IMG/VR virus record: IMGVR_UViG_2645728028_000002 | Coordinates: 32,001 to 96,000 of that record | DNA from: a virus | Taxonomy: Duplodnaviria; Caudoviricetes | Reading direction: 5' to 3' (one strand) | Length of the DNA: 64,000 nucleotides | In this document: positions 18,938 through 63,361 of the stretch, one piece after another | How positions within the stretch are numbered: position 1 is the first letter of the stretch | Layout: each line of letters begins with the position of its first letter | Notes under the pieces: model-generated | Seen by the model: the letters and a program-made list of their open reading frames with translations, nothing else | Database searches by the model: none | Told to the model about the DNA's origin: nothing | Translations under genes and position numbers: made by a program

Positions 18938-21121
18938 ATGGAAGAAATTATTGAATTGAAAATTGTCCCTGTCAGAGAGTTTTTCCACAACAATGATTAT
19001 GGTATTTATGTTTGCGAAACTGATGAGCCGAATAAAGTAATGCTTAATAAATTCCATAATAATTTTTCAATGAAGGGCAATACATTCAAGTTAAAGTTAG
19101 ATAAAGAATATAATGCAAAATTGGTTGAGCGTGAGGATAAAAAATACGGCACATATTATGAAATTGTATCTATCTTTGAGAATATGCCAACAGGCAAGGA
19201 TCAGCAAAGAGGATATTTGTTAAGTGTCCTAACTGAGAAACAGGTTAATGCTATTTATAAAGCATATCCAGACGAGGATATTATTGAACTATTCAAGACA
19301 GACAAGTTTGATGTGAACAGGGTAAAAGGAATTGGAGAAAAATCTTATGTGAAGGTTAGGGATAAGATTATTGAAAACTTGGAGTTTCAGCAAGCTTTTG
19401 AATTCCTCAGTCAATATGGAGTTACGAATAACCTGATTATCAAACTGGTAAAACATTTTAAATCTGCAGGATTGTTAATAAAAAAGATGAAAGAGAATCC
19501 TTATTCGATTACTGATATATCGGGAATTGGATATAAAAAAGCTGACACTATAGCAATGAGCATGGGTTACGATCCAAGTGGTGAATTCAGAATTGACGCT
19601 GCTATCGAATATGTAGTTGAAGAAGAAAGCAATAAAGGTAACACTTATGTAACTACAGACAAATTAGTTTTCCAAGTAGAGGACTTGATCAGTGTTGCGG
19701 AGTCATTAATAAATAATCAAATAAAAAATACTTCTAATCTAATTGTATCAGGTGATAGAGTTGCATTAAAGAAAAATTACGATGCGGAAAAGTTTATCTC
19801 TAAGAAATTGAAATCAATTTTAAAAAACAGCTCTTCTCTTAATTTTGATGTTGAGAAATTCATCTTAGATCAAGAAGAGAAAAGAGGTATAAAATTAACA
19901 GACCAGCAAAAATCGTTTTTCTATAATATTAAGGATCATAATGTTAACTTACTTGTTGGTTACGCTGGAACTGGTAAAAGCCAATTAACTGCCTTACTTA
20001 TTGACTTATTAGAGCAATTGAAAATTGGTTATAAGCTCACAAGTCCAACCGGAAAAGCAGCTAAGGTAGTTAGCAATTATACAAATAGAACGGCTGAAAC
20101 CCTTCACAGAGCAATAGGCTTAGGGCGTGAAGGAAGAGAAGATGAAATTAAGTATATTGAAGAAGAATTTGTAATTGTTGATGAAACATCAATGGTTGAT
20201 GTCCAATTGTGCTCAAAACTATTAAAAAAATGTAATAATGAAAATTTAAGAATTTTGTTTATTGGGGATGATTTTCAAATCGCTTCAATTGGGGCAGGCA
20301 GGTTACTATATGATCTGATACAAAGCAACAGGATTCCAACTACCAAAATTGATATCGTTTTCCGTCAAAAAGAAAATAGCATACTCGATATAGCAACAAA
20401 AATCAGACAAGGTAAGAAGTTTCTTAATAATAGTGATGAAGGAATATTTAAGTTTAGTGAAAATTGCATAGTAGCAAGTGTGCCACAAGATAAAATGGAG
20501 GGCGGATATAAGTACTATCTTAAAGAGATGCTAAATTCTTTCTCCAGTGATGAGATTACTATTACTACCCCTACTAAAAAGTCAAAGTTGGGTACAGTTG
20601 AAATAAATAAGCATACTCAGGAATCTGTAAATCCGAATGATGGATCTAAGATAGAAAAACAATTTGGATATGATGGTGTTGTGTTTAGAGAAGGAGACTT
20701 GGTTATTAATGCAAAGAATACCTATAGAATACAAGATATTCACTCAAATGAAATTGATATAGTTAACGGTGATGTTGGAAAAATAATAAAGATTGATCTA
20801 GAAGAAGAGGAAATATGGGTTGATTTTGATTTTGCTACAATCCCATTTGACTACGCCATGTTAGGGCAATTGCTTCATTGTTGGTCTATGACGATACACA
20901 AAATGCAGGGATCTTCTAATAAAGCCATCTGTGTAATTGCGGATAAGGCGCATAAATTTCAATTAAATGCAAACCTACTTTACACTGCTGTCACAAGAAG
21001 CGTTGATTATCTTGTAATATTAAGTCAAGCATCCACTATCAATTTCGCATTAAAGAAGATTGCTAGTTTACAAAGAGATACATTTTTAGGTGAATTTTTA
21101 AGGGAGGATGGAGATGCCTAA
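18938..21121 (+). CDS. recD2: RecD2-like SF1B helicase
   Basis: HhH repeats, GYAGTGKS, PTGKAA, VDETSM, GDDFQ, FRQ, TIHKMQGS, YTAVTR. Confidence 0.92.
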   Translation: MEEIIELKIVPVREFFHNNDYGIYVCETDEPNKVMLNKFHNNFSMKGNTFKLKLDKEYNAKLVEREDKKYGTYYEIVSIFENMPTGKDQQRGYLLSVLTEKQVNAIYKAYPDEDIIELFKTDKFDVNRVKGIGEKSYVKVRDKIIENLEFQQAFEFLSQYGVTNNLIIKLVKHFKSAGLLIKKMKENPYSITDISGIGYKKADTIAMSMGYDPSGEFRIDAAIEYVVEEESNKGNTYVTTDKLVFQVEDLISVAESLINNQIKNTSNLIVSGDRVALKKNYDAEKFISKKLKSILKNSSSLNFDVEKFILDQEEKRGIKLTDQQKSFFYNIKDHNVNLLVGYAGTGKSQLTALLIDLLEQLKIGYKLTSPTGKAAKVVSNYTNRTAETLHRAIGLGREGREDEIKYIEEEFVIVDETSMVDVQLCSKLLKKCNNENLRILFIGDDFQIASIGAGRLLYDLIQSNRIPTTKIDIVFRQKENSILDIATKIRQGKKFLNNSDEGIFKFSENCIVASVPQDKMEGGYKYYLKEMLNSFSSDEITITTPTKKSKLGTVEINKHTQESVNPNDGSKIEKQFGYDGVVFREGDLVINAKNTYRIQDIHSNEIDIVNGDVGKIIKIDLEEEEIWVDFDFATIPFDYAMLGQLLHCWSMTIHKMQGSSNKAICVIADKAHKFQLNANLLYTAVTRSVDYLVILSQASTINFALKKIASLQRDTFLGEFLREDGDA

Positions 21122-26830: not shown

Positions 26831-27940
26831 ATGAATTTATCTAATATTGAAGTAGGAAACATATATAAAAATTATAAGGCTTTATGTGAAATACTAGAGG
26901 AAAAGAATAAGACAGGTAACGCAAAAAAGGCACAACTTAAAGAATGGGAAAGGTTTTTCAAATATGAAAAGGAAGGGAATAAATTTATAATTACTCATGT
27001 ATATGCTATTCCTTTACCCGAAAACAACAATAAGACTAAATACATACCAACAATTGAAAAATTAATACTTGATAAAGTTGTTCAATTCGGCAATAAAGGA
27101 AAGGTTTTTATTTCAAAAAGCCAGCTAATGCAAGAATTAAAAATGATCAATGAAAATTATACTTTTGCAAAATATAAGCAATTAAGATTAGCAAAGCATA
27201 TGAATATATCATTAGAAGAAGTTGAAGAATTTTATATGACTTCTGACGACTTACTGAAAAGAAATATAGAAGCAGCTTTAAACAGTTTGCGTAATCAATC
27301 ATTAATATTCTGGACTAATGCAATGACTTTATGCTTTATTGAAACCCATGCAGAGACAAATAATACAAACAATATTAAAGCAACTAAAGAGGAAAGAACA
27401 AACGAATACAACGAAAATACAGTATCATTTTCTGCAATTAAACCAGTAAGCTATCAAACATATAGGAAAGCCACAGAAGAGGAAATAGAGTATATTTTGC
27501 AAGTTGAAAAGGAAGTATTAAATAAATATAATTGTGATAAAATTAGTGAAACATTTAAAAAAGGACTAAATAATAAATTTTACAAAGAAGTAAAAGAAAT
27601 ACTTTTTGATACTGCGAATATTTATTATTATTTTAATTCCTATGAGATAATAGCAAATGAAAAATATATTTATTCTAAATGGGAAGAATTAGAGGAATTA
27701 CAGTTAGAACTTGATGAAAGAGAAACATATAAAAATACTTTAAATTATGATGTTATAGATAGAATTAATCATAATGCAGAAAGAAGGCATTTAAAAGCAA
27801 TTGAAACTCTAAATGATGATGCACCAGAAAGAATAAAAAACAGATCAAACGAAAACTATTTAAGCAATAGTTATAAATTAACTGATACACTTATTAATAA
27901 AAATGCATTATCTTTAAAAAGAGAATTCAATATAAAATAA
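26831..27940 (+). CDS. Hypothetical phage DNA-binding protein
   Basis: 369 aa, AAGGAGG RBS; followed by long inverted repeats. Confidence 0.7.
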   Translation: MNLSNIEVGNIYKNYKALCEILEEKNKTGNAKKAQLKEWERFFKYEKEGNKFIITHVYAIPLPENNNKTKYIPTIEKLILDKVVQFGNKGKVFISKSQLMQELKMINENYTFAKYKQLRLAKHMNISLEEVEEFYMTSDDLLKRNIEAALNSLRNQSLIFWTNAMTLCFIETHAETNNTNNIKATKEERTNEYNENTVSFSAIKPVSYQTYRKATEEEIEYILQVEKEVLNKYNCDKISETFKKGLNNKFYKEVKEILFDTANIYYYFNSYEIIANEKYIYSKWEELEELQLELDERETYKNTLNYDVIDRINHNAERRHLKAIETLNDDAPERIKNRSNENYLSNSYKLTDTLINKNALSLKREFNIK

Positions 27941-47573: not shown

Positions 47574-47762
47574 GATTAATGGGGAATTGATTGCACCTGA
47601 AGGAATGACACATGAAGAACTGTTAGATTTATTGTTTAGTGAGTTAAAAAGTAAGGGTGTGCATTTTCGAGGAGAGACTAAGCAGGGGAATTAATACATA
47701 AGAGTATAGATGGACTGTCTTAAAAATTATAATTTTATAAGGAAATGGGGTGAGAATTAACC

Positions 47763-47957
47763 ATGTCTGAATATGAAAAGTGTAAAAGTGACATTGTGTA
47801 CTTTGCTGAGAAGTTTTTAGATTGTACTTTAGCTGAATGGCAAAGAGATTTACTGAGAAGATTTCATAAAGGTGAAGAGTTTATTTTCTCTAGAACAGGA
47901 AAAGGTAAGAAGATGGTTATTTCTGCAATGAATCAGTACAACAAAGTATTTAAATAA
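47763..47957 (+). CDS. 64-aa protein resembling the N-terminal part of a terminase ATPase
   Basis: EYEKCKSDIVYFAEKF...LAEWQRDLL...SRTGKGK. Confidence 0.55.
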   Translation: MSEYEKCKSDIVYFAEKFLDCTLAEWQRDLLRRFHKGEEFIFSRTGKGKKMVISAMNQYNKVFK

Positions 47958-47971
47958 AAGGAGGTATTTAT

Positions 47972-49691
47972 ATGGAAGAGTACTATTTAATCTTTAATGA
48001 TGGAGAAGAAGAAATTCTTAAGTTACATGTTTACCATGAAGAACACTACGCTAAAGAAGAAATTTATACAATTGTAAAAAAAATTAGCAAAAAATGCTTT
48101 GAAAAGTATGGGGAAAATGTAGAGGAATGGCTTTATAAAAATTACATTCAATATGCCCTTACTCATGATTATGATTTTACTTATAATCAACCAGTAAATA
48201 TTTTTAAGTATGAAATGACAGATAAGTATTTGGATTCATTAAATTAGAATATAAGATTTTATAGGAAAGGAGAAAATCCAGTGGAGTCTTTATTTAAAGA
48301 AGAAAGTATAATTAAATCAAAAACTAAAAAAGTGGATTCAAAGGTGATTCTGCAGTTCAAGTCTTTAGGTTTAGATTTTCATCCAGACACATTTGAGCAT
48401 TTTAGGGGAAACGACTCAATTTATTTAGATGCGTTGAGGGAGATTGATACTCATATAAGAGCAACCAAAGATCCAGTTCCTTTTATTATTGATACATTGA
48501 AAAAGACTTTGCCAGAATATAATGATCAGCACACAAATAGGTTATAATCATTACGGGTGATTAGAATGAATAAAAACGACTTAGCAAATAATCTTACTAC
48601 ATTACTGAATACAAAATTAGACTATTCAGGTGAATTTAACACGCTATTCTTCATCGAAAAAGATCAAAATGGAACGGTAATTAAATTTCTAAATAAAGAC
48701 CACTATAACTACATATTGAAACACTTGAGAGGTGAGCTGGTTGATGTAATTGGTGGAGAAGTAAAAGTAACTCATTTAAATCTTGAAACATCTCCAGTCA
48801 CTATGAAGAACTTCGAGAATGCTAAAGGAATAACAGTTAGACCTATTAGCCCAATTAAGAAAGAAAAGGTTGAGTTGCCTACAATAAGGAATAGAACAAT
48901 TAAGGAAATAGAGAAATTTTTGTCTGATGAATTTCATGTGCTTATGGAAAAACAGCAAGAATTAAGAGATCAGCATGAAGACTATATTGAAAAATTGCAA
49001 TATGCATATAACTATGGGGAGGTTGGATTTCTTGTCAAACTAAATAGCTATCTGCAGAAAATTAAAGATTATGAGGAGGAGTGAAATATTGATAGCTAAA
49101 GATGAATATGTTTTGAAGAGAATCAAGTCGACTGTTAATCATCATATTGAGAAGAAATCAAAATTAAATCCAGATAGTCTAATGAATTATATCGAACAAT
49201 TAGAGTTTGACTATGATATGGAGAAAGCATACAGACCTGAAGTATTAATGAAGGAGAATGACAATGAGTAGAAAAGGAATGGATATCAAACAACTGAATG
49301 AATTTATGAAGAAATGCAGCGAGAAATATAATGTAAGATATGTAACTCCAACTATTCATCCAAAATTTAAATCAGCTGTTGCAGTCACAATACATACCAG
49401 TGATGAGAGTATGGAATTTACAATAACAAATAATCCTGATGAGAATTTTGATTTGAATCAATCAGTTAATAAGTATCTAGATAAGTTGAATTAATTAAAT
49501 GTAGGAGGTTTGTAATGTATAGGTGTTATTTAAACGGTAAATTTTACGGCACTGGAAACTTAAAGTATATGCAGGAGTTATTTGTTGATTATGTAGTTAC
49601 TTGTGAGATGTATGGAAAGAATCAGGCTGAATTTAAAATCATAAAGTTGTGGAATGAAGGCGAAGAACCAATAGGGACTACTGATGTCTAA
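47972..49691 (+). CDS. Cluster of small hypothetical genes (47972, 48281, 48557, 49071, 49258, 49515)
   Basis: Consecutive or overlapping plus-strand ORFs with RBSs. Confidence 0.6.
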
Positions 49692-49722
49692 ATAAATTAT
49701 CAGCTTTATAAGGAGTGATATT

Positions 49723-50433
49723 ATGAGGAAAGATTCATTTAAAGCATTGGTAGGATCACACAATTACAATCTGAACACGGATGATTCCGATAAAGACTAT
49801 AAGGTTTTCTTTTATCCATCATTCGATGACTTGTATTCAGGAGAGAAGTATTCTAAAGTAATGACTGGAGAAACAGAAGATGTTGAGTATCATGATATCA
49901 GGAAGCTGCCTGATATGCTGTGGAAGAGCAATGTGAATTTCTTAGAAGTTTTATTTTCAACTGAAATAATTGAATACGATGGGCTATTTAAAGAGATACA
50001 AAGCAAACGTGAGTATATCGCAAGTATGAATCTACCTTGTCTATACGATGCTTGCATGGGAATGTATTTTAAGAAAAAGAAAGAATATGAAAGAGATGTG
50101 TTAAAAGGTGAATGGAAGAAAGTATACAAGCATGTAATGTCAGCAGTAAGAATTGTGGATTTCTTACAAAGATATGAAAGTTCAAATTGGAACTTTTCTA
50201 AAGCTATTACATATCAAGATCATGAGTATATGAGAGGTACATTATTAAATATTAGAAATGGTCAATATCAATCTGACAATGAGTTGGATGTTTTTATTGA
50301 AGGATCAGAAAAACTTATGGCTGCCATTAAGGGTGTGTATAAGAACAAGAAAGAAGATTTAACAACTAAGGAATGGCTCTATAAGACTGTTAAATGGGAA
50401 GTTGAAGAGAAAATATTTATGGAATTGCAATAA
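49723..50433 (+). CDS. Pol-beta-superfamily nucleotidyltransferase (YcgL/NrdC.11-like)
   Basis: VGSHNYNLNTDDSDKDYK = GS...DxD motif; NVNFLEVLFS. Confidence 0.8.
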   Translation: MRKDSFKALVGSHNYNLNTDDSDKDYKVFFYPSFDDLYSGEKYSKVMTGETEDVEYHDIRKLPDMLWKSNVNFLEVLFSTEIIEYDGLFKEIQSKREYIASMNLPCLYDACMGMYFKKKKEYERDVLKGEWKKVYKHVMSAVRIVDFLQRYESSNWNFSKAITYQDHEYMRGTLLNIRNGQYQSDNELDVFIEGSEKLMAAIKGVYKNKKEDLTTKEWLYKTVKWEVEEKIFMELQ

Positions 50434-50467
50434 AACATTTATATTATCGTGAATTGGAGGATATAGG

Positions 50468-51817
50468 ATGAATTTTAAAAGTATTGATCTTGTATTGGAA
50501 AACTGTGAAGTAATAACAGTTGAACGTAAGTATATGGGGCATCTTTATATGTCGAACTTTAACACTACAATTTCTAGGCATGATAAAAAACTTTTGAGCA
50601 GCGAAGTGGTTAATGAGTTTGCAATAGAAATACACAGAAGTTTAGACGAAACTACAAATAAACAAGGATTGTTTGATAAGTATAGTCCAATTGAGAGGTT
50701 GAGAAAGTATTCTGACATAACGCAAATTGAAATTACATACGAAGATAATAGCAAGAAGCATGTCTATACTCATTGGCATGATGAAGACGAATATGATAAT
50801 AGGTATCAAAAAAGTAAATTAAATAATTTTGGAGATTTATATATTGTCATTTCTGAAGCTAAGGATATTGATTACTATTTTCAAGATGAGACAATAAACG
50901 ATTCAGATATGGTGGAATGGAACTGGGACAATTTTAAGGAGGGTAAGTTGTGACTGGTTATTATGTTTTGGCTTCCGTTGAGTGTAATATGATTTATGCT
51001 ATGCACAATAAAGTATACCTAACTGAAGGAATGGCTAGAGGCGCTTTGAAGTTACTATGTAAGTTTAATAGAAATAAATATGAAAATTATGAGGTTTGGG
51101 GAATAAGTGACTTAACAAAAATCACTAAGAAATGATCCATTTATAGGAGGAATATATAATGAGTAAAGAAACATGGAACAAAGGTTATCAAGAGGTCAGA
51201 AATGTTATTCATAACGAGATAGGTATAACAAAGGAAGAAGTATTGAAAGTATTTCAACAAGTAGCAAAAGACGAAATTCAAAAGATTGTTTCTGAGAAAA
51301 GTGGGTTTATCTATCAATCTATAAAGGAAATAATTAGTCACGAGATGATAAAGGCAATTCAAGATCACAAATATCCAAAACTAACAGGGAGCCTGTGGTA
51401 TTATGGGCATGAAGGAAGAGGTATAGACACATTTAAAGATTATGTGTCAGGTGTGATGAAAGAAGAGATAGTGAAAACTTTAAGTGAGCAATTTGAAATT
51501 AACCTAAATGTAAATAAAAAGTAGATTTCATGGTGAAATGAGGGGAAGAAATGAGTAAAGCAATTAACTCAATAAATAAAGTCATTGATGAGGTTAGAAT
51601 ACTTGAAGAAGAAATTAGAGAATTAAAAAGAGACAAAACACAGGCTGAGGCTTTTTGTGCAACTGTGATAAAGAAGTATGGAGAGAAAGTTGATATTGAG
51701 ATAAATTTACTTGAAATTTTTAAGAGTGATTTTGAAAAAGTCAAACTTTATCCGACTGTGGAAAGTAAATTGAATGTTAAAGTGAAATATATTGAAGAGA
51801 AAGATGAGACAAATTAA
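50468..51817 (+). CDS. Four hypothetical genes (50468, 50950, 51159, 51551)
   Basis: RBSs; separated by junction motifs. Confidence 0.6.
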
Positions 51818-52161
51818 TTTATCTCATCCATAAGTTTAATAATCAAATTCAATTGTTCATCAGATAGTTTCCTTGCCTTAAGTAATAATTCCTGTTCTGT
51901 CTCACTTAACACTTTATCAGCGCTATTATTAGAATTTACATAACCAGTTAACACCATCAACTCATCATAAGATACGTTAAGAAGATGCTGCGAAAGAGTT
52001 TTCAGTGTCTGAGGATCAGGTTTCTGAGTATTGTTTTCAATTCTAGTCACAGTTGCATTAGATATTCCAGATTTAATTGCAAGTTGTCTAGCACTTTTAT
52101 ACCCACTAGAGATTCGAATTTGTTTAAAGGATTCACCGAAAGTATTTTTCATATTTATCAC
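51814..52161 (-). CDS. XRE HTH regulator
   Basis: FGESFKQIR...SARQLAIKSGISNATVTRIEN...PDPQTL. Confidence 0.8.
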   Translation of the reverse strand: MINMKNTFGESFKQIRISSGYKSARQLAIKSGISNATVTRIENNTQKPDPQTLKTLSQHLLNVSYDELMVLTGYVNSNNSADKVLSETEQELLLKARKLSDEQLNLIIKLMDEIN

Positions 52162-52199
52162 CAGATTAATTTTAACATAATGGAAGGTGAGGTGAGAAC

Positions 52200-52553
52200 T
52201 TGTTTAAAGTTGTGGTTGCTGGAGGAAGAGATTTTAATGATTATGAGTTACTAAAAGAAACATTGAATCACCTATTACAAAAGAAATTACCTGATGTTGA
52301 AATTGTCTCTGGAGCAGCAAGAGGAGCAGATTCACTTGGAGAAAGATACGCACAAGAACTTGATTTAAGTTTACATAGAAAACCTGCATATTGGGAGAAA
52401 TTAGGCAAAAGTGATGGATACAGAAGAAATGCTGAAATGGCTAAATATGCAGATGCAGCAGTTTGTTTTTGGGATGGAAAAAGTAAGGGAACTAAACATA
52501 TGATTGACCTAGCTGAGAAAGAAGGATTGCAAATTAAAGTAATTAAATATTAG
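52200..52553 (+). CDS. SLOG-superfamily protein (YspA/DUF2493-like)
   Basis: VVVAGGRDF, IVSGAARGAD, RRNAEMA, FWDGKSKGT. Confidence 0.82.
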   Translation: MFKVVVAGGRDFNDYELLKETLNHLLQKKLPDVEIVSGAARGADSLGERYAQELDLSLHRKPAYWEKLGKSDGYRRNAEMAKYADAAVCFWDGKSKGTKHMIDLAEKEGLQIKVIKY

Positions 52554-52565
52554 GGGAGTGTAAAC

Positions 52566-52808
52566 ATGAAGTATGAGACTTATGAACAAGTAACAAGTGC
52601 CTTTAAGAATGAAGGGTATAAGATCTTGGCAGAGAGTAATGACTTATCTTGGGTTTATATGTATAAAATTGATCAGATTAGAAAAAATGTGACACTTGTT
52701 TCTTGGTATGAATCTGATGGAGAGGTGCAAAGAATTTCAAATATTGAAGACTTTTTATTAATGGATATATTAGATGAAATGGGTTATAAGGGATCTATTT
52801 CACTATAA
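52566..52808 (+). CDS. Hypothetical protein
   Basis: GGGGAG RBS. Confidence 0.55.
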   Translation: MKYETYEQVTSAFKNEGYKILAESNDLSWVYMYKIDQIRKNVTLVSWYESDGEVQRISNIEDFLLMDILDEMGYKGSISL

Positions 52809-52823
52809 TAGAACGATTTTATC

Positions 52824-53282
52824 TTGAAAGGAGAAGAAATGAAATTAATTTTTCTTGATATAGATGGAGTTATGAATAATTGGATCGAGAGTCAACCATC
52901 AAACAAGCACGAGAGTTTAGAGTTTGCTTCCAGTTGTGTGGAAAATCTCAAGTATATTTTAAAGGAAACCAACGCAAGAATAGTTGTTTCATCAACTTGG
53001 AGAATTGGTGAAACTGAAAAGACACTTAAGGATAAAGTATTTAAACATTATGATCTAGAAAAATACATACTTGATGTTACTCCAGTTTGTTGGGAAGAGC
53101 CAAGAGGCGTTGAGATTGCTTCATATTTAGCAAGTTTACATATCTGCAATGTCGAAGGAATAGTAATCTTAGATGATGATTCAGATATGGAGGATTTAAA
53201 GGATTATTTAGTGAGAACAGATCCAAAATACGGATTGACTAAAAAAGACGCTGAATTAGCAATTCAAATCTTAATCAAATAA
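52824..53282 (+). CDS. HAD-superfamily phosphatase (Swiss-army-knife RNA-repair-like)
   Basis: IFLDIDGV, VVSSTWR, RGVEI, ILDDD. Confidence 0.82.
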   Translation: MKGEEMKLIFLDIDGVMNNWIESQPSNKHESLEFASSCVENLKYILKETNARIVVSSTWRIGETEKTLKDKVFKHYDLEKYILDVTPVCWEEPRGVEIASYLASLHICNVEGIVILDDDSDMEDLKDYLVRTDPKYGLTKKDAELAIQILIK

Positions 53283-53419
53283 TGCTTTTAAAGGAAGGAG
53301 GAGATATATATTATGTGGCTAACATTTTGGGAAGCACTTTCTCAATCTAAAGAAGGTGATGTAATCGAGTGTGAAGCAATCTACAGTAACATAGTTAACA
53401 ATGGGGATTATACGTTCAT

Positions 53420-54420
53420 GTGGGAAGAAGAATGGAAACCAGTTGTTTTAAGAGGAGAATATATAGGAATGAAGTGGAGAATAAAATAATCAAACAAGGG
53501 AGCATACATATGAAGACGATGGATAAGAATCTGTTCATTAAATGGGCAACTAAGCGTATGGAGTTTCTAAAGGATAGAATTGATAGAGATTTTGGTGGAG
53601 GCTTGGTTGATGATTTAGGAAAGTTTAATGAGATTAAGATGATCAAGGAAGCTGCTGAACGTGGTGAGTTTGATATAAAGGTTTGGGAGTGATACATAGT
53701 GACGTTATGGTTCATGTTTATGGCTGGAATATTGTATTTGTTTAGACTTGATGAACTAGCAACTAATGGAGTAAATGAGTTAATAGGAAAGAAATTTACA
53801 ACATCAATTTACTGGTTAACATTTTTAGTTATCGGATTAGTGTTGGATATTGTTTATGGGATTGTGAATTTATTCAGTTAAAATCTTTATTTTACTTAGA
53901 AAGGAGTGAGAAAAATAATACATTTAGCTGCTATTTTAATAGGTATTGTAATTATAGGAGCGATAATTTATTTATTCAACAAACCAGAAATCTTGTTTTA
54001 CATAGTTATCGGTTGTTTTGCACTAGGATTTGCTTATATCTTGGGTGGATCAATACTAGGAATTTTATAGATAATAACAGTGTTTTATAAGGAGTTGATA
54101 TTATGACAAAAGAAGAATTATTAAATAGAAAAGAAGCATTAGAATTAGAAATTCAAAATATAGAAAAACAGCTAAGAGTAATGACCAACCTAGAAAAGCC
54201 ATATGTAGCAAATGTTTCAGCCTATAGCGGTCATTACTCTATGCAATACAAAACAGAAGCACAAGCTAGAAAGAAACTTAATGAATATGCAGCTAAAACA
54301 TATTTCAAAAATGGATTAAATTATGGAGTGTATCTGTATAAATGGAATGAAGATGGATCTAAAACGTTACTAGAGAGTATCCCATTAGGACGAAAGAACT
54401 TTGAGCCTAGTTTAGATTAA
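53420..54420 (+). CDS. Cluster of small hypothetical genes, some membrane (53420, 53699, 54103)
   Basis: ORFs between junction motifs. Confidence 0.55.
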
Positions 54421-54664: not shown

Positions 54665-55018
54665 GTGACAAAGTTTAAAGATAATCTTTTAATACTTAGA
54701 AAAGATAAGGGTTTAACACAAGATGATGTTGCGCAATATTTGCAATTATCTAGACCTGCATATAGCAGGTATGAGACTGGTGGAGCAGAACCAACTATAG
54801 AAAATCTAATGCTGCTTGCTGATCTATATAATATATCTCTAGATGAATTAGTGGGTAGAGATTTTAAACAAGATAGTAAAGGGCTGCAAACCATACTTGT
54901 TAGAAAACAAATCGATATTCAGCTTAGAGGAATTCTACAAGAAACAATTAAAGAAATAGTTGATGAAAAAGAAAATGAAATTCGAGACACTGTTTTAAAG
55001 AAATTTGGGTTGCAATAA
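54665..55018 (+). CDS. XRE HTH regulator
   Basis: LRKDKGLTQDDVA...SRYETG..EP..E. Confidence 0.85.
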   Translation: MTKFKDNLLILRKDKGLTQDDVAQYLQLSRPAYSRYETGGAEPTIENLMLLADLYNISLDELVGRDFKQDSKGLQTILVRKQIDIQLRGILQETIKEIVDEKENEIRDTVLKKFGLQ

Positions 55019-55118
55019 AAGAAGACATTTATTAAGAATTTAAGATCTGCAGCAATGTGGATCTTTTTATTTTGGTTAAAATAAGTAAAAGTTTCTTAGA
55101 AAAACATTCCAATTTTGC

Positions 55119-55147
55119 TTTACAGAAATATTGGATTAGTGTATTAT
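55119..55147 (+). promoter_or_regulatory. sigma-A promoter of the yopP-Q-R-like operon, overlapped by a TCCAA-N18-TTGGA box
   Basis: TTTACA-17-TATTAT. Confidence 0.55.
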
Positions 55148-55264
55148 GTAACTATAAGATAAAATAATTTAATAAATTTGAATAAACGTGTTTAACCTGA
55201 GTATAATATAGGTATATAGACAGAGAGAAAATAAAACTATTTGGAGATTAAAGGAGAGACAATT

Positions 55265-55405
55265 ATGCTTGCAGACGTTTTTGGATACATTAGAAGGAAC
55301 ATTCACAACTGGAATTCTTACCAAATTAAGAAGTCATTAAAGGAAATTAATCAAACGAAGCTACTATTAGAGAAAAAATTAAAAGAACTGGAGGAGGCTG
55401 TTTAA
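55265..55405 (+). CDS. 46-aa hypothetical protein (not in ORF track)
   Basis: AAGGAG RBS; ends just before the recombinase start. Confidence 0.55.
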   Translation: MLADVFGYIRRNIHNWNSYQIKKSLKEINQTKLLLEKKLKELEEAV

Positions 55406-55406
55406 A

Positions 55407-56456
55407 ATGTTGGCTCAAAATGTAGTTAAACTTAATAACTCTAAGATATATGATCAGATACAGAAATACTTAGATAAACACAGTTATAATAGTGAAAGTA
55501 CAAAAACAGCATACTTAAATGACATTAAATTATTCTTTAGGATTATTAAAAACAAAGAAATTGAATACTTAACAATTGATGACGTACAAATAACCTTGGA
55601 TGATTTCGAAGACTTTATTAAGTACTTATATGACTGGAAAGACGAAGAGGGAAATAAGAAATATGTTAATAAAACAATTAACAGAAAAGTTTCTGCTGCT
55701 AAAGGATTAATTAAGTATTTATCAGCAAAAAAAATTAATGGAGAATATATTGTAAAAGATATTTCATACTTTCCAAATATAAATTCTTTACCTGAATCAA
55801 AGAACCAACACGGAGTTTTAGAGGCTAGTGAGGTATTTGAAATGGCTGAACTTGCTCTGGGAGAGAGGGAAAAGGGAGAAATAAAGCGATTAGCAATTTT
55901 GCTTTCATTAGATAGCTGCATAAGAAAATCAGCTTTGCTATCTCTTAAATGGTCTAATTTCATTGAGAAAGAAGATGGATACTTACTTCAAGGGGTAGAC
56001 AAAGGGAATAGTGATTTCAGACAATTAATATCTAAAGAATTATATAACGAATTGTTATCCATTAGGACTAAATCAGACTGTGTATTTGATATTAGCGCAG
56101 ATTCTTTGGATGGAATGTTCAAACGATTACGTGAAAAGATGAAGATTGAACCCAATAGAAGAATAGTGTGGCATTCTATACGTAAATCAGGAATAACTTA
56201 TAGATATAGATTAACTGGAGATATATTAGAGGCAAAAAGAGCAGCTAATCATGCGAATATTACCACAACCCAGATATACCTAGAAGAAGAGGATTATGGA
56301 GCAATGGGAGCTGTTTCATCTAAAGGATACCTTGACATGGATCTATATAAAAAAGTTGATCATGAAATATTACTTGAAGCAATTGAATTGATGAAGAAAG
56401 ATGCTAAGTTGATTCTAAATATGAAAATAAAGGAAATTTTAAAACAAAATAATTAA
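55407..56456 (+). CDS. yopP: Tyrosine recombinase, YopP (SroD)-like
   Basis: Core-binding domain plus R (SCIRK), K (DKG), HSIR, H (ANH) and Y (TQIY) catalytic set; synteny. Confidence 0.8.
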   Translation: MLAQNVVKLNNSKIYDQIQKYLDKHSYNSESTKTAYLNDIKLFFRIIKNKEIEYLTIDDVQITLDDFEDFIKYLYDWKDEEGNKKYVNKTINRKVSAAKGLIKYLSAKKINGEYIVKDISYFPNINSLPESKNQHGVLEASEVFEMAELALGEREKGEIKRLAILLSLDSCIRKSALLSLKWSNFIEKEDGYLLQGVDKGNSDFRQLISKELYNELLSIRTKSDCVFDISADSLDGMFKRLREKMKIEPNRRIVWHSIRKSGITYRYRLTGDILEAKRAANHANITTTQIYLEEEDYGAMGAVSSKGYLDMDLYKKVDHEILLEAIELMKKDAKLILNMKIKEILKQNN

Positions 56457-56548: not shown

Positions 56549-57904
56549 ATGAAAACTGCTACAAATAGAACAGATTTAGAGCAAACTTTATCTGAAGTAA
56601 TTAAATCAGCAAAACTTAAAAGAAAGAACAATCGTGATACAGAGGATATTAAGGAATATTTAAATAAGAACTATGATATATTCTCTGGTGATATTCAAGG
56701 TTGGATTAATGATCCGGAAGGCGAATTACCTAATTTAGATATAAGAGAGTTATTTTTATTAACTGAGCAAGTTTATGCTAAAACAGGTAATTTATCAATC
56801 AACCCTGAAGACTACTTTACTGAGGCAGAAATTAAAGAAGCAAGACAATTTAGCGGAATAATGGAACAAAAAGAAAACGAAATTGATTTTCCAATAACTG
56901 TTCGGAACGCAACAATAGTTGGTAATAGTGCATATATGGTAACACTTGATATTAAGACAATTGATCAATTAATTGAAAATCAGTTACTTCATTATAACTA
57001 TGAACTACAACGTGAACATAAAATTGTAAAAAGAAAAGATAAAGTAATCATTGAACCTACATTAAATATGAAAAATGTTAAAGAGATCTCGCAGCATTTA
57101 ATTGAGGGAACATTAGTTCCTACAGTATTAGTATTTAATGCTGCTACTCGTTCAGCAGACAAAGGTACAGAATTAGTATTTGATCCTAAAAAACTAGAAT
57201 TAACTATCACTAAAGGAACAAAGATGGACATTGTAGATGGATATCACCGATGCAGAGCTTCACAAAATGCATTACAAGTTAATCCAGATTTGAATTTCAA
57301 TTTTGCAGTATTAATAACAAATTATTCAACAAAAAAAGCCCAGCAGTATCAGGCACAGCTTGCAAAGGCTACGCCTATATCTAAGACACGTATTCAAGAA
57401 CTAGAAGCTAATCGACTAAGTGATACTGTCGTTCAACAATTAAGAGAAGAAAGTGATCTGAGAGGAAAGATATCTCAAACAAACAGAATTCATACAATAG
57501 GTGATGAATTAGTTGCATATAATGTATTAGCAGATACAATTGATGAGCAATTTAAAATGGAAACAAGAGCTGATGCAGCAGATGTTGGAGATTATCTAAC
57601 TGAATATTTCAATTTTGTAATTGGATCTTATCCAGATGAATTTGTTAATAATCCTAATGAAACAAGAAAAGAATCTTTAATCAACGATAACAATATGTTT
57701 GTTGGATATATTGTTCTAGCAAGAAGAATGTTGGAAAAAGATATAAAACCTAAAGAAGTTAGAAAGTATTTAAAGAATATAGATTTCAATAGAGATAATC
57801 AATTGTGGCAAGAAATTGAAGTACTAAATAATAAAGGCAATATTGAGAATACAACCAAGGCTAGAAAAGCCATTAGAGAATATTTTGATCAATTAGATAT
57901 ATAA
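56549..57904 (+). CDS. yopQ: YopQ (SroE)-like ParB/DndB-fold protein
   Basis: IVDGYHR motif; lies between the two recombinase-fold genes. Confidence 0.75.
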   Translation: MKTATNRTDLEQTLSEVIKSAKLKRKNNRDTEDIKEYLNKNYDIFSGDIQGWINDPEGELPNLDIRELFLLTEQVYAKTGNLSINPEDYFTEAEIKEARQFSGIMEQKENEIDFPITVRNATIVGNSAYMVTLDIKTIDQLIENQLLHYNYELQREHKIVKRKDKVIIEPTLNMKNVKEISQHLIEGTLVPTVLVFNAATRSADKGTELVFDPKKLELTITKGTKMDIVDGYHRCRASQNALQVNPDLNFNFAVLITNYSTKKAQQYQAQLAKATPISKTRIQELEANRLSDTVVQQLREESDLRGKISQTNRIHTIGDELVAYNVLADTIDEQFKMETRADAADVGDYLTEYFNFVIGSYPDEFVNNPNETRKESLINDNNMFVGYIVLARRMLEKDIKPKEVRKYLKNIDFNRDNQLWQEIEVLNNKGNIENTTKARKAIREYFDQLDI

Positions 57905-57952: not shown

Positions 57953-58930
57953 ATGAGTAATAAAATATATAATTTAGATATTAAAGAGAAATTTCTATCC
58001 ACTTATGAAAATGAACAAACACAAAACACTTTGAAATATGTTTTTTACAGATCATATTCTGCAGAGGAATTATTAGAAAAAGACCTATATGATTTTACCA
58101 GCGATCAAATAAAAAAAGTAATAAAGAATACTAATCCACATTCATTAGTTACTGCAAAATCAACTACAAGATTTATTACACAGTATATCTCATGGGCAAT
58201 AGGAGAGGGTTTGAGAAGCAACCTAAATCCTTTAAAGGGTTTGGATGACTCATTTTATGAAGGATTAATCGATAAGACTAAGAAGATTCATTATAGCAAA
58301 GAAGAATTTATAGATCTTTTAGAGAAGTTACCTAATGCTCAGGATCAGGCTTTCTTAATGTTAATGTTCCATGGGATTATTGGTAATAAATTTGAAGAAC
58401 TTAGAGAGTTAAGCTATAACGATATTGATTGGAACAATAATAAAATAACATTAAGAAAACGTAATAACCAAATAATTGAAGTTGATGATGTAACTATGCG
58501 CTATCTTGAAAATGCTCATAAGCAGCAAGTTTATTTTACCTACAATGAAAAGAATGGTGAACATAGTGAGCGAGAACTATTACCTAATGAATATATCTTC
58601 AAAAGTTTAAAAAGCCCAAGAGCAAAAGAAGGAGAATCAGTTACACAAGCAGTACTGTATACTAGATTAACTAATATTAAGAAAGAATTTGATCTAGAAT
58701 ATTTAACACCAAATGCGGTTAAACAGTCGGGAATGATTTTTATGGCTGTTGAGCTATATAATGGGAAGCGGGATAAGTTAGAATATGAAGATTTTGAGAA
58801 AATAGGAAAGAAATTTGATTATTCAATGCTAAATAACAACGGCTACCAGTATTATAATACAACACTGATGAAGGAATTTTGCAATTCCAAAAATAGCAAA
58901 GAACTATACGACATAGAAATTGAATATTAA
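57953..58930 (+). CDS. yopR: YopR/MrpR (SroF)-like master repressor with degenerate tyrosine-recombinase fold
   Basis: 325 aa; catalytic R and HxxR replaced (GIIG, TPNAVKQSG); synteny. Confidence 0.8.
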   Translation: MSNKIYNLDIKEKFLSTYENEQTQNTLKYVFYRSYSAEELLEKDLYDFTSDQIKKVIKNTNPHSLVTAKSTTRFITQYISWAIGEGLRSNLNPLKGLDDSFYEGLIDKTKKIHYSKEEFIDLLEKLPNAQDQAFLMLMFHGIIGNKFEELRELSYNDIDWNNNKITLRKRNNQIIEVDDVTMRYLENAHKQQVYFTYNEKNGEHSERELLPNEYIFKSLKSPRAKEGESVTQAVLYTRLTNIKKEFDLEYLTPNAVKQSGMIFMAVELYNGKRDKLEYEDFEKIGKKFDYSMLNNNGYQYYNTTLMKEFCNSKNSKELYDIEIEY

Positions 58931-58966: not shown

Positions 58967-59319
58967 ACATAAAACTTAATGCAAAATAATCAATTATAAG
59001 TTAATGGTGTTTAATTGTTTTTAAAACTTATTGAAAATAATTAAATGTTATTAACTAGGAAAGATATAATAACAGAAAATTACTTTCATTCCAATTTTAC
59101 AAAATTAAAAAATTGGATTTAAAATCAGAAGAGATATGAAATTGTCAATAAAAAAGTTTTACTTTAGACACATTTTTAACAAATTCGACAAAATAAGACA
59201 AAGACACAATGGAAAAACTGTAGTAATATGTAAATATTAGTTGGCTTTTCTAAATGGAAGTTCACTATTTAGTGAATGGTAGGAAAGGACTAGGCATAAA
59301 ACCTTAGCCCTGCTCACCC

Positions 59320-60700: not shown

Positions 60701-60967
60701 TATTTTTTTTTACACAACGTCCCCAAAATAGGGACTCTGAAAATGGGAGTAACTTACGAACTAAGACAAATCTCACAATAATAATTAGCAGCTCATCAAT
60801 GTATCTACATCAATGTTTTATAGGTATATTTGGTGAGCTTTTATTATTGTAGTAAAATTAAATAATTATATAAAATCAGTGTTTTATCGGATGGGGGAAT
60901 TAAGTTATAAATAATTGGAAAAAGTTGTTGACTTCTAAAATAAAATAATTTAATATAAAGATAGTTA

Positions 60968-61929: not shown

Positions 61930-61968
61930 AATAAAAAGGCGATTTGATTTGAAAAAGGAGATGAAAAA

Positions 61969-62562: not shown

Positions 62563-63361
62563 ATGGTGGTGCAAAGCGAAAAAGGAAATAAGATTGGTAA
62601 AAAGATTGAGGATCTTATGGAATCTTTAATTTGTGGATTTGAAGAAGATGAGGAAATGTTGGAGCGTGAAATTAATAAGTTGCAGGAACAGTATTTCGCC
62701 ATTGAGGGAAGATACTTTAGATCAGTATTGGAAAACTAAATAATAAGATTGCTTATAGGAAGGATGGAAATATGAGAAAATTATTTAAGGAAGATGAATT
62801 TGACAGGATAAATGCAGAACTGGTAAACAGTATCATTCCTGCTGAATCCCTAAATGGTTATTTTAACTTAGGAGTAGCACAGACTTTAAGTACTCTAACT
62901 GATATCGCTAACCAATACATTAATGGACAATACAGCAAAGAACTAGATGCAGTAGACTTGAAGAAAATTATTGTTGAGTTAATGTGTCAAAATAAAGAGG
63001 CAAGGACTTACTTTGATAGATTAAGAAATGATGGTATTAAATTAAATCATGAGGATTTCAGTTAATAAGATTGTTTTATAAGGAGTGTATATAATTGAAT
63101 GAATTGAAGGTTGCGCTGGATAGTTATTTTGAATTTAGTCCTAAAGCAAAGGAAATAAAAGATTGGGCAGGCTGTAACTACTATGTTAATAGAGGCAATA
63201 ATGATTGTGAGCCAATAGGTACTGCTACATCAATGCATGATTGCTTAGATTGTGAAAGAATTGATTATTGTAAGATTAAGATGAGTGCTCCAATTTGGGA
63301 AATAAATGACGAAAGAGTTAAAGAGTTAAATAAAAAGTGGAGAGAAATGCACAGTAAATAA
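62563..63361 (+). CDS. Three small hypothetical genes (62563-62739, 62772-63065, 63095-63361)
   Basis: RBSs; junction motifs between them. Confidence 0.55.

Follow-up and report, generated by a model that had tools for sequence, protein, structure and literature searches.

A YopP/SroD-like tyrosine recombinase with a conserved catalytic site and the gene-junction palindromes of an SPbeta-type prophage

The open reading frame at 55407-56456 on the plus strand of the window (the whole stretch of viral DNA analysed here, 64,000 nucleotides; G000:C19:2249609-2313608) encodes a 349-aa Xer-like tyrosine recombinase, which by sequence and gene order is a new member of the already known YopP/SroD group. 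Our reading as a whole, which we consider probable, is that the gene is the orthologue of SPbeta yopP/sroD, belongs to the lysogeny operon, and encodes a protein that most likely cleaves specific phage sites and is not an integron-type integrase. The SPbeta-type phages serve as a laboratory model, and their conserved recombinase-fold proteins are YopP, YomM, and the catalytically dead YopR. Among these three, only YopR has a known target.

Fold and Active Site of the YopP-like Protein

Pfam matched residues 157-294 to Phage_integrase (PF00589; E = 2.8e-10) with a score of 40.7 bits against a curated cut-off of 27.1, placing the protein in the tyrosine recombinase superfamily, and its N-terminal part (residues 20-108) to the SAM-like core-binding domain PF02899. 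In PHROGs, it was classed as an integrase (PHROG_1). The NCBIfam scores were below every curated Xer cut-off: 52 bits for XerA (cut-off 220), 42 for XerC (335), 40 for XerS (267), and 30 for XerD (330). Judged by these profiles, the protein is Xer-like in build and not a member of the Xer family. We used a fold search because a sequence search of solved structures returned no match. The AlphaFold2 model, computed with an input of 43 homologues, had a mean pLDDT of 88, and its top Foldseek matches were XerA, XerH bound to difH, Tn1549 Int, VchIntIA (2a3v), Cre, and lambda Int. The probability was 1.00 for XerA, XerH, Cre, and lambda Int, consistent with the two-domain fold of these enzymes, and the single-Xer recombinases were the closest structural relatives. 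The profile scores and fold matches therefore indicate a simple tyrosine recombinase of Xer-like build, with two domains and no arm-binding domain. The predicted parts are a core-binding domain (residues ~11-106), a catalytic domain (residues ~140-295), and a conserved helical C-terminal extension of ~55 residues past the catalytic Tyr291.

The catalytic columns were set by an alignment with the host's two XerC/XerD-type proteins and 25 other recombinases, in which the phage sequences came from 12 phages. We assigned R173 (in CIRKS), K199 (VDKG), H256 and R259 (WHSIRK), H282 (NHAN), and Y291 (QIY) as the catalytic set. In an alignment of 43 homologous sequences reaching down to 38% identity, R173, K199, H256, H282, and Y291 were invariant, and R259 was present in at least 90% of the sequences. 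The same columns of the YopR-like neighbour (57953-58930) showed the first Arg replaced by Lys, the second His by Asn, the second Arg by Lys, and the third His by a gap. The alignments thus bear out the sequence-only reading, in which the YopP-like protein, unlike its YopR-like neighbour, had been credited with a full R, K, HxxR, H, and Y set. Since the residues required for the chemistry have been kept over very deep divergence and lost in the paralogue YopR, the YopP-like protein has most likely retained the ability to cut and religate DNA at specific phage sites. The second catalytic Arg is conserved as Arg in the protein's own clade, in Geobacillus E3, and in Perkons; it is Lys (HSFK) in the YopP proteins of SPbeta, the Staphylococcus SPbeta-like phages, Tsamsa, FADO, BcoS-136, Lactococcus, and Alicyclobacillus. 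Because of this Lys in many homologues, the catalytic strength may vary across the YopP family.

The Lysogeny Operon and Its Prophage

The window belongs to an AT-rich prophage of ~140 kb (~2,217,000 to 2,358,500), with a GC content of 31-33% compared with 40% for the chromosome. The left part of the prophage holds tail and lysis genes, and its right end encodes a 527-aa large serine recombinase with Resolvase, Recombinase, and Zn-ribbon domains. The latter is only 27% identical to SprA, which carries out the integration of SPbeta (PMC8612738; PMC10516654). As this separate enzyme lies at the prophage end, YopP would be unnecessary for integration, as the earlier reading had argued from the SPbeta precedent, and the YopP-like protein is probably not the prophage integrase.

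In a maximum-likelihood tree, the protein fell into a clade of 18 rows that is monophyletic with SPbeta YopP (support 100/99) and separate from both the YomM clade and Xer. Besides SPbeta YopP, this clade includes proteins from Staphylococcus, Alicyclobacillus, Lactococcus 949-type, and Tsamsa/FADO/BcoS-136 phages. The yopP-yopQ-yopR order is common to SPbeta, E3, Perkons, and two metagenomic prophages whose YopP proteins are 87% and 64% identical to ours; in SPbeta and both of these prophages, aimR-aimP lies upstream of yopP. Likewise, the gene studied here lies downstream of aimR/aimP and upstream of a DndB-like yopQ and an MrpR-like yopR. The agreement with SPbeta and phi3T YopP (SroD) thus extends to the clade, the Xer-like domain pair, and the gene order, in which yopP precedes yopQ/sroE and yopR/mrpR/sroF. 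There are also differences from SPbeta: its YopP is only 29.5% identical and has the Lys described above where our protein has Arg; an 8-kb array of small genes separates aimP from the operon here; and yopO overlaps yopP there, whereas an unrelated small ORF abuts the yopP start here.

The genes yopMNOPQR have been renamed sroABCDEF (PMC10769878). YopP is a core gene product of the SPbeta-like phages, and one of three data sets recorded yopP transcripts in lysogens (bioRxiv 10.1101/2021.11.22.469490; PMC10516654). Its XerC-type domain was noted by Brady et al. in 2021 (PMC8612738).

Upstream of the operon, a small-gene array ends with an Xre-type HTH gene in the yopO-like position (54665-55018, plus strand; PF01381, E = 8e-17). 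Its stop codon is overlapped by the last palindrome of the array, ATAAAA-gaagac-ATTTAT (55015-55032), which begins 392 nt ahead of the yopP start. A last junction site 0.4 kb from yopP, as previously proposed, therefore exists; it has one mismatch, in the right arm, and was not listed by an exact search with the degenerate pattern WTAAWA-N6-TTTTAW. The same palindrome with an identical centre is present in the relative L007, at 9607. A terminator-like hairpin with a T-run (55042-55065, plus strand) closes the array. It is followed on the plus strand by two sigma-A-like promoter matches (55119-55207), TTTACA-17-TATTAT at 55119-55147 and TTGAAT-18-TATAAT at 55178-55207, which are consensus matches only, at 10 of 12 positions each. 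A small ORF (55241-55405, plus strand; 54 aa from TTG or 46 aa from an internal ATG) stops 1 nt before the yopP ATG. It is a predicted coiled coil, had no family match in Pfam or PHROGs, and has counterparts in position in the relatives L007 (9859-9999) and L008 (9868-9999), where a small ORF likewise abuts yopP.

Downstream on the plus strand are the yopQ/sroE-like gene (56549-57904), which encodes a ParB-like DndB/DGQHR protein (PF14072, E = 3.9e-18; phrog_5732, E = 2.7e-114), and the yopR/mrpR/sroF-like gene (57953-58930), which encodes a recombinase-fold repressor lacking the catalytic residues (PF22822 and PF22823). Motif searches placed the first palindrome of the downstream array at 60870-60887. 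Because this is the next site after 55015, the 5.8 kb between 55032 and 60870, including the yopP-Q-R operon, is free of palindromes. Among the long genes of the yopP-yopQ-yopR (sroD-E-F) lysogeny operon, the YopP-like gene comes first, with a putative promoter of its own, and the protein would be made alongside the repressors, both in lysogens and at early stages of infection. Brady et al. in 2023 reportedly assigned SroD/YopP the role of an auxiliary repressor in SPbeta and phi3T, working alongside SroE and SroF. Literature citing that study contained no mention of SroD.

An inverted repeat, TCCAAT-N16-ATTGGA, occurs at 55108-55135 and again at 59090-59117, overlapping the -35 region of the promoter-like matches that precede yopP and follow yopR. 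The repeat probably serves as an operator, and its spacing is wrong for the core site of a tyrosine recombinase. The YopP of L007 is 87% identical to the protein studied here. The blocks flanking the small-gene array, aimR and yopP-R, are 73-75% identical between L007 and the window, and the array itself (47618-53480, from aimP to the HTH gene) has no DNA similarity to L007 3052-6874. In the phage collection searched, no nearly identical DNA was found.

Palindromes at Gene Junctions

The pattern WTAAWA-N6-TTTTAW had 32 strand matches in the window, compared with 2.7 expected. A spacing scan from 0 to 14 gave these 32 matches at spacing 6 and 0-7 at each other spacing. Across the prophage, spacing 6 gave 19 perfect sites and 35 with one mismatch, compared with 0-1 and 1-22, respectively, for the other spacings. 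The prophage holds 45 of the 106 palindrome sites on the chromosome, and the host chromosome had no spacing-6 peak. The palindromes lie where small genes of the same orientation meet, at the 3' ends of the genes; the TAA of the left arm is often the stop codon, and the ribosome-binding site of the next gene follows the right arm. Arrays of these sites flank the yopP operon on both sides, up to ~50 kb away.

The symmetry of the palindrome runs into both flanks, as represented by the FADO consensus TGGATAAAA-N6-TTTTATCCA. Variants in one arm were not compensated in the other, and the forced arm hairpin, folded as RNA, had a mean energy of +0.4 kcal/mol. We rejected the RNA hairpin interpretation on account of the uncompensated variants, the unstable hairpin, and the flank symmetry, which is that of a duplex dimer site. 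The same three observations suggest that the palindrome is recognised as duplex DNA by a symmetric dimer. The inverted arms and variable 6-bp centre are arranged as in a simple core site of the Xer type.

All 54 palindromes of the prophage differ in the 6-bp centre, and pairs of near-identical centres were not in excess (4 observed, 8.8 expected). Two sites of the same array are therefore unlikely to undergo canonical strand exchange, which also speaks against excision within an array. Between two related genomes, matching junctions could exchange.

The same motif was the top palindrome in SPbeta, Geobacillus E3, and Perkons. Clean spacing-6 peaks were obtained for Tsamsa (23), FADO (33), the Clostridium phage c-st (30, compared with 4-12 at other spacings), and the Clostridioides phage ES-S-0107-01 (23, compared with 3-11). 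Lactococcus PMBT69 had a weak spacing-6 peak of 8, and the Alicyclobacillus phage KKP_3916 had none. The palindrome was absent from SPO1, SPP1, phi105, AR9, and phage K. This absence indicates that the palindrome is a signal of the phage lineage and not of the host; a host-general signal, read by the ribosome, an RNase, or sigma-A, was rejected, as the motif is missing from the B. subtilis phages SPO1, SPP1, phi105, and AR9 and from phage K, and as the host chromosome lacks the peak.

In relatives (L007 at 3555 and 8271; E3, L011, at 11286), a longer repeat, GGTGAATT...TAGACACAAATTG, directly follows some of the palindromes. This element may be a repressor operator of this clade.

The sequence-only reading had compared the arrangement of recombinase and arrays with an integron. 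Like IntI and its attC sites, the recombinase gene lies beside arrays of co-oriented small genes with a repeated site at their 3' ends, and VchIntIA (2a3v) is among the fold matches. The comparison breaks down at the features that define an integron. The integron integrase model TIGR02249 scored 22.5 bits against a cut-off of 265 and matched only residues 228-304; the sites are 18-bp duplex palindromes without the imperfect stem of attC; no attI-like site lies beside yopP, as the site-free interval between 55032 and 60870 shows; and the arrays lie on both sides of the gene, up to about 50 kb off, with the motif occurring also in phages without yopP. We thus rejected an integron-type integrase identity of YopP.

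Among known systems, XerA, XerH/difH, and XerS/difSL gave the best structural and NCBIfam matches and likewise have two domains and lack an arm-binding domain. Should the palindromes be the target, the inverted arms and 6-bp centre are a further likeness to these single-Xer systems. However, these use one chromosomal site, in contrast to about 50 sites with differing centres here, and our protein has the added C-terminal extension of ~55 aa and an XerA score far under the curated threshold (52 versus 220 bits). MrpR (YopR/SroF) shares the paralogous fold, the operon, and a DNA-binding role in lysogeny with YopP (PMC10516654). It differs in having lost the catalytic residues, all of which YopP keeps, and it binds SPBRE as a repressor (PMC10516654).

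Candidate Readers of the Palindromes and Their Possible Role as Crossover Points

A YopP dimer bound to the two arms could cut at either border of the 6-bp centre and thereby exchange or insert cassettes in an integron-like manner; the earlier reading had suggested the palindromes as a possible substrate of YopP. We consider this unlikely. The geometry, with inverted, flank-extended arms and a variable 6-bp centre, suits a single Xer-like recombinase; XerA and XerH-difH are among the best fold matches of the model, and the catalytic site is conserved. The YopP clade and the motif occur together in this prophage, SPbeta, E3, Perkons, the Staphylococcus SPbeta-like phages, Tsamsa, FADO, and BcoS-136, and the motif-free SPO1, SPP1, phi105, K, and AR9 fall outside the groups in which the YopP search had matches. 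The ends of homology blocks between SPbeta and phi3T also coincide with palindromes more often than random positions do (see below). The distribution, however, runs against this proposal, as do several features of the sites. The motif-rich c-st and ES-S-0107-01 have no YopP-clade gene; conversely, KKP_3916 lacks the motif yet carries a gene of the YopP clade, and the Lactococcus 949-type phages have YopP and only about 8 sites. All 54 centres are different, no palindrome adjoins yopP or falls inside its operon, the integron-integrase model scored far below its cut-off, and the block-end excess over the gene-junction expectation is modest. Of the earlier proposal, the palindromes themselves, their place at the 3' ends of genes, and their Xer-type build were supported. 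Its expectation that motif-rich phages would carry an intact yopP held only in part, given c-st and ES-S-0107-01 and the converse case of KKP_3916. Among possible targets of YopP, ATAAAA-N6-TTTTAT is the most visible, and we rate the chance that YopP uses it below that of a YomM-type enzyme. Servicing of the palindromes by YopP is plausible on geometric grounds, though doubtful overall, since the distribution favours the YomM-type enzyme, if either.

The prophage encodes such a YomM-type tyrosine recombinase (328 aa; G000:C19:2238168-2239157, or L002:13168-14157, minus strand; PF00589, E = 4.5e-16) inside the tail (late) module, about 10.5 kb left of the window start. It may be this enzyme that uses the palindromes, with YopP serving the lysogeny module only; we regard this as a real, if minority, possibility. 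The YomM-type protein has the full R-K-H-R-H-Y set, and each of the seven genomes that bear the motif and were examined in full (this prophage, SPbeta, Tsamsa, FADO, PMBT69, c-st, and the Clostridioides phage) has an intact gene of the YomM clade or its sister clade. In c-st, the single catalytic tyrosine recombinase is in the sister group of YomM and outside the YopP clade. In KKP_3916 (OQ846916), the only palindrome-free genome among the eight compared in full, the YomM-type copy is split across two reading frames at about 26864-27815 (L053:6864-7815; 44% identical to the c-st recombinase), although the split could be a sequencing error. Across the eight genomes, a small and phylogenetically non-independent sample, the presence or absence of the motif was tracked by YopP in 5 of 8 and by the YomM-type gene in 8 of 8. 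The YomM-type protein is also better conserved toward the Tsamsa-type and Lactococcus phages (52-56% identity, compared with 26-30% for YopP), and its late expression would coincide with many genome copies per cell. Against these points, the tracking comes from eight related genomes only, and the Lactococcus 949-type phages have a 53%-identical YomM copy yet few palindromes. More distant YomM homologues, in Enterococcus, Lactobacillus, and Sextaecvirus phages, are accompanied by little or no motif excess; lacking a clear excess, they were uninformative as a test of the motif. When all prophage ORFs were compared with six genomes, none was present in all the motif-bearing genomes and absent from the motif-free one. 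If neither enzyme acts on the palindromes, YopP would still be a puzzling case of a complete, conserved catalytic site in a protein so far described only as a repression helper.

We give comparable, tentative weight to the palindromes being operators of a dimeric regulator or another phage protein, in which case neither recombinase would be involved and the joints would coincide with the sites through their intergenic position. The distance of 11 bp between the arm centres would fit an HTH dimer, and the modest block-end enrichment over the gene-junction expectation is compatible with such coincidence. In several c-st palindromes, a promoter-like word, ATTAAATTAAA, lies 11-12 nt downstream. 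The identical arms in phages whose regulators share less than 30% identity would nevertheless be unusual for immunity-type operators, and two regulators of the operon do not fit. YopQ/SroE was rejected as the universal reader because it is absent from the motif-rich Tsamsa, FADO, and BcoS-136. An MrpR/SroF operator was rejected because the MrpR-bound promoters of SPbeta (SPBRE) share another sequence, about ACAAAAAATATGTATA (PMC10516654). A last alternative assigns YopP a function unrelated to the palindromes, as a Cre/Xer-like multimer resolvase that acts at one dedicated site on the circular, replicating phage form. This appears quite improbable, and we kept it as a candidate because of the gene neighbours: in Tsamsa, BcoS-136, and FADO, the YopP-clade gene adjoins a gene that carries, in the first two, the annotation 'replication initiation by nicking'; in Lactococcus phiL47 and PMBT69, its neighbour at the genome start is a gene for a RecD-like helicase/exonuclease V. 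The simple Xer-like build of YopP and the ParB/DndB-like nature of its partner YopQ would also fit a resolvase. On the other side, no dedicated, longer dif- or lox-like site was found near yopP, where the repeat TCCAAT-N16-ATTGGA is wrongly spaced.

In c-st (NC_007581), the fixed word ATTAAATTAAA follows palindromes such as those at 20282, 29637, 30745, 34304, and 41246. It looks like part of a phage-specific promoter, and the palindrome in c-st may have a transcriptional partner.

The inter-gene palindromes are real and, in genome comparisons, look like crossover sites. When SPbeta was compared with phi3T, 10 of the 25 ends of homology blocks lay within 45 nt of a palindrome, compared with 2.6% of random positions. 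Since about 22% of the SPbeta gene junctions carry a site, the excess over an 'any junction' expectation (about 5.6) is modest. The other 15 block ends had no palindrome, and one 720-bp insertion had a palindrome at one end only. A 100%-identical 3.2-kb block (SPbeta NC_001884, L010, 25000-28212; phi3T, L023, 23841-27053) runs exactly from palindrome to palindrome, with unrelated sequence outside. In five SPbeta/phi3T joints, the switch from unrelated to identical sequence was located at a palindrome arm or at the border between arm and centre.

Short conserved junction elements where relatives have swapped genes are known from the PeSL cassettes of T4-type phages and the boundary sequences of lambdoid phages. 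These elements are promoter plus stem-loop or coupling signals used by homologous recombination, in contrast to the strict palindrome with a fixed, variable 6-bp centre observed here. YopP, alone or with the YomM-type enzyme, might swap modules between co-infecting or resident SPbeta-type phages at the ~50 palindromes, each 'addressed' by its centre; we think this rather unlikely. Under such a swap, the unique centres would allow crossover only at matching junctions, and genes would therefore be exchanged without scrambling the gene order. If YopP or YomM does act on the palindromes, mosaicism in these phages would be driven by a dedicated site-specific system and not by chance recombination. 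In the comparison of the prophage with L007, homology resumed at 55010 and at 61930, both at palindromes, and a 58-bp island of homology surrounded the palindrome at 63358.
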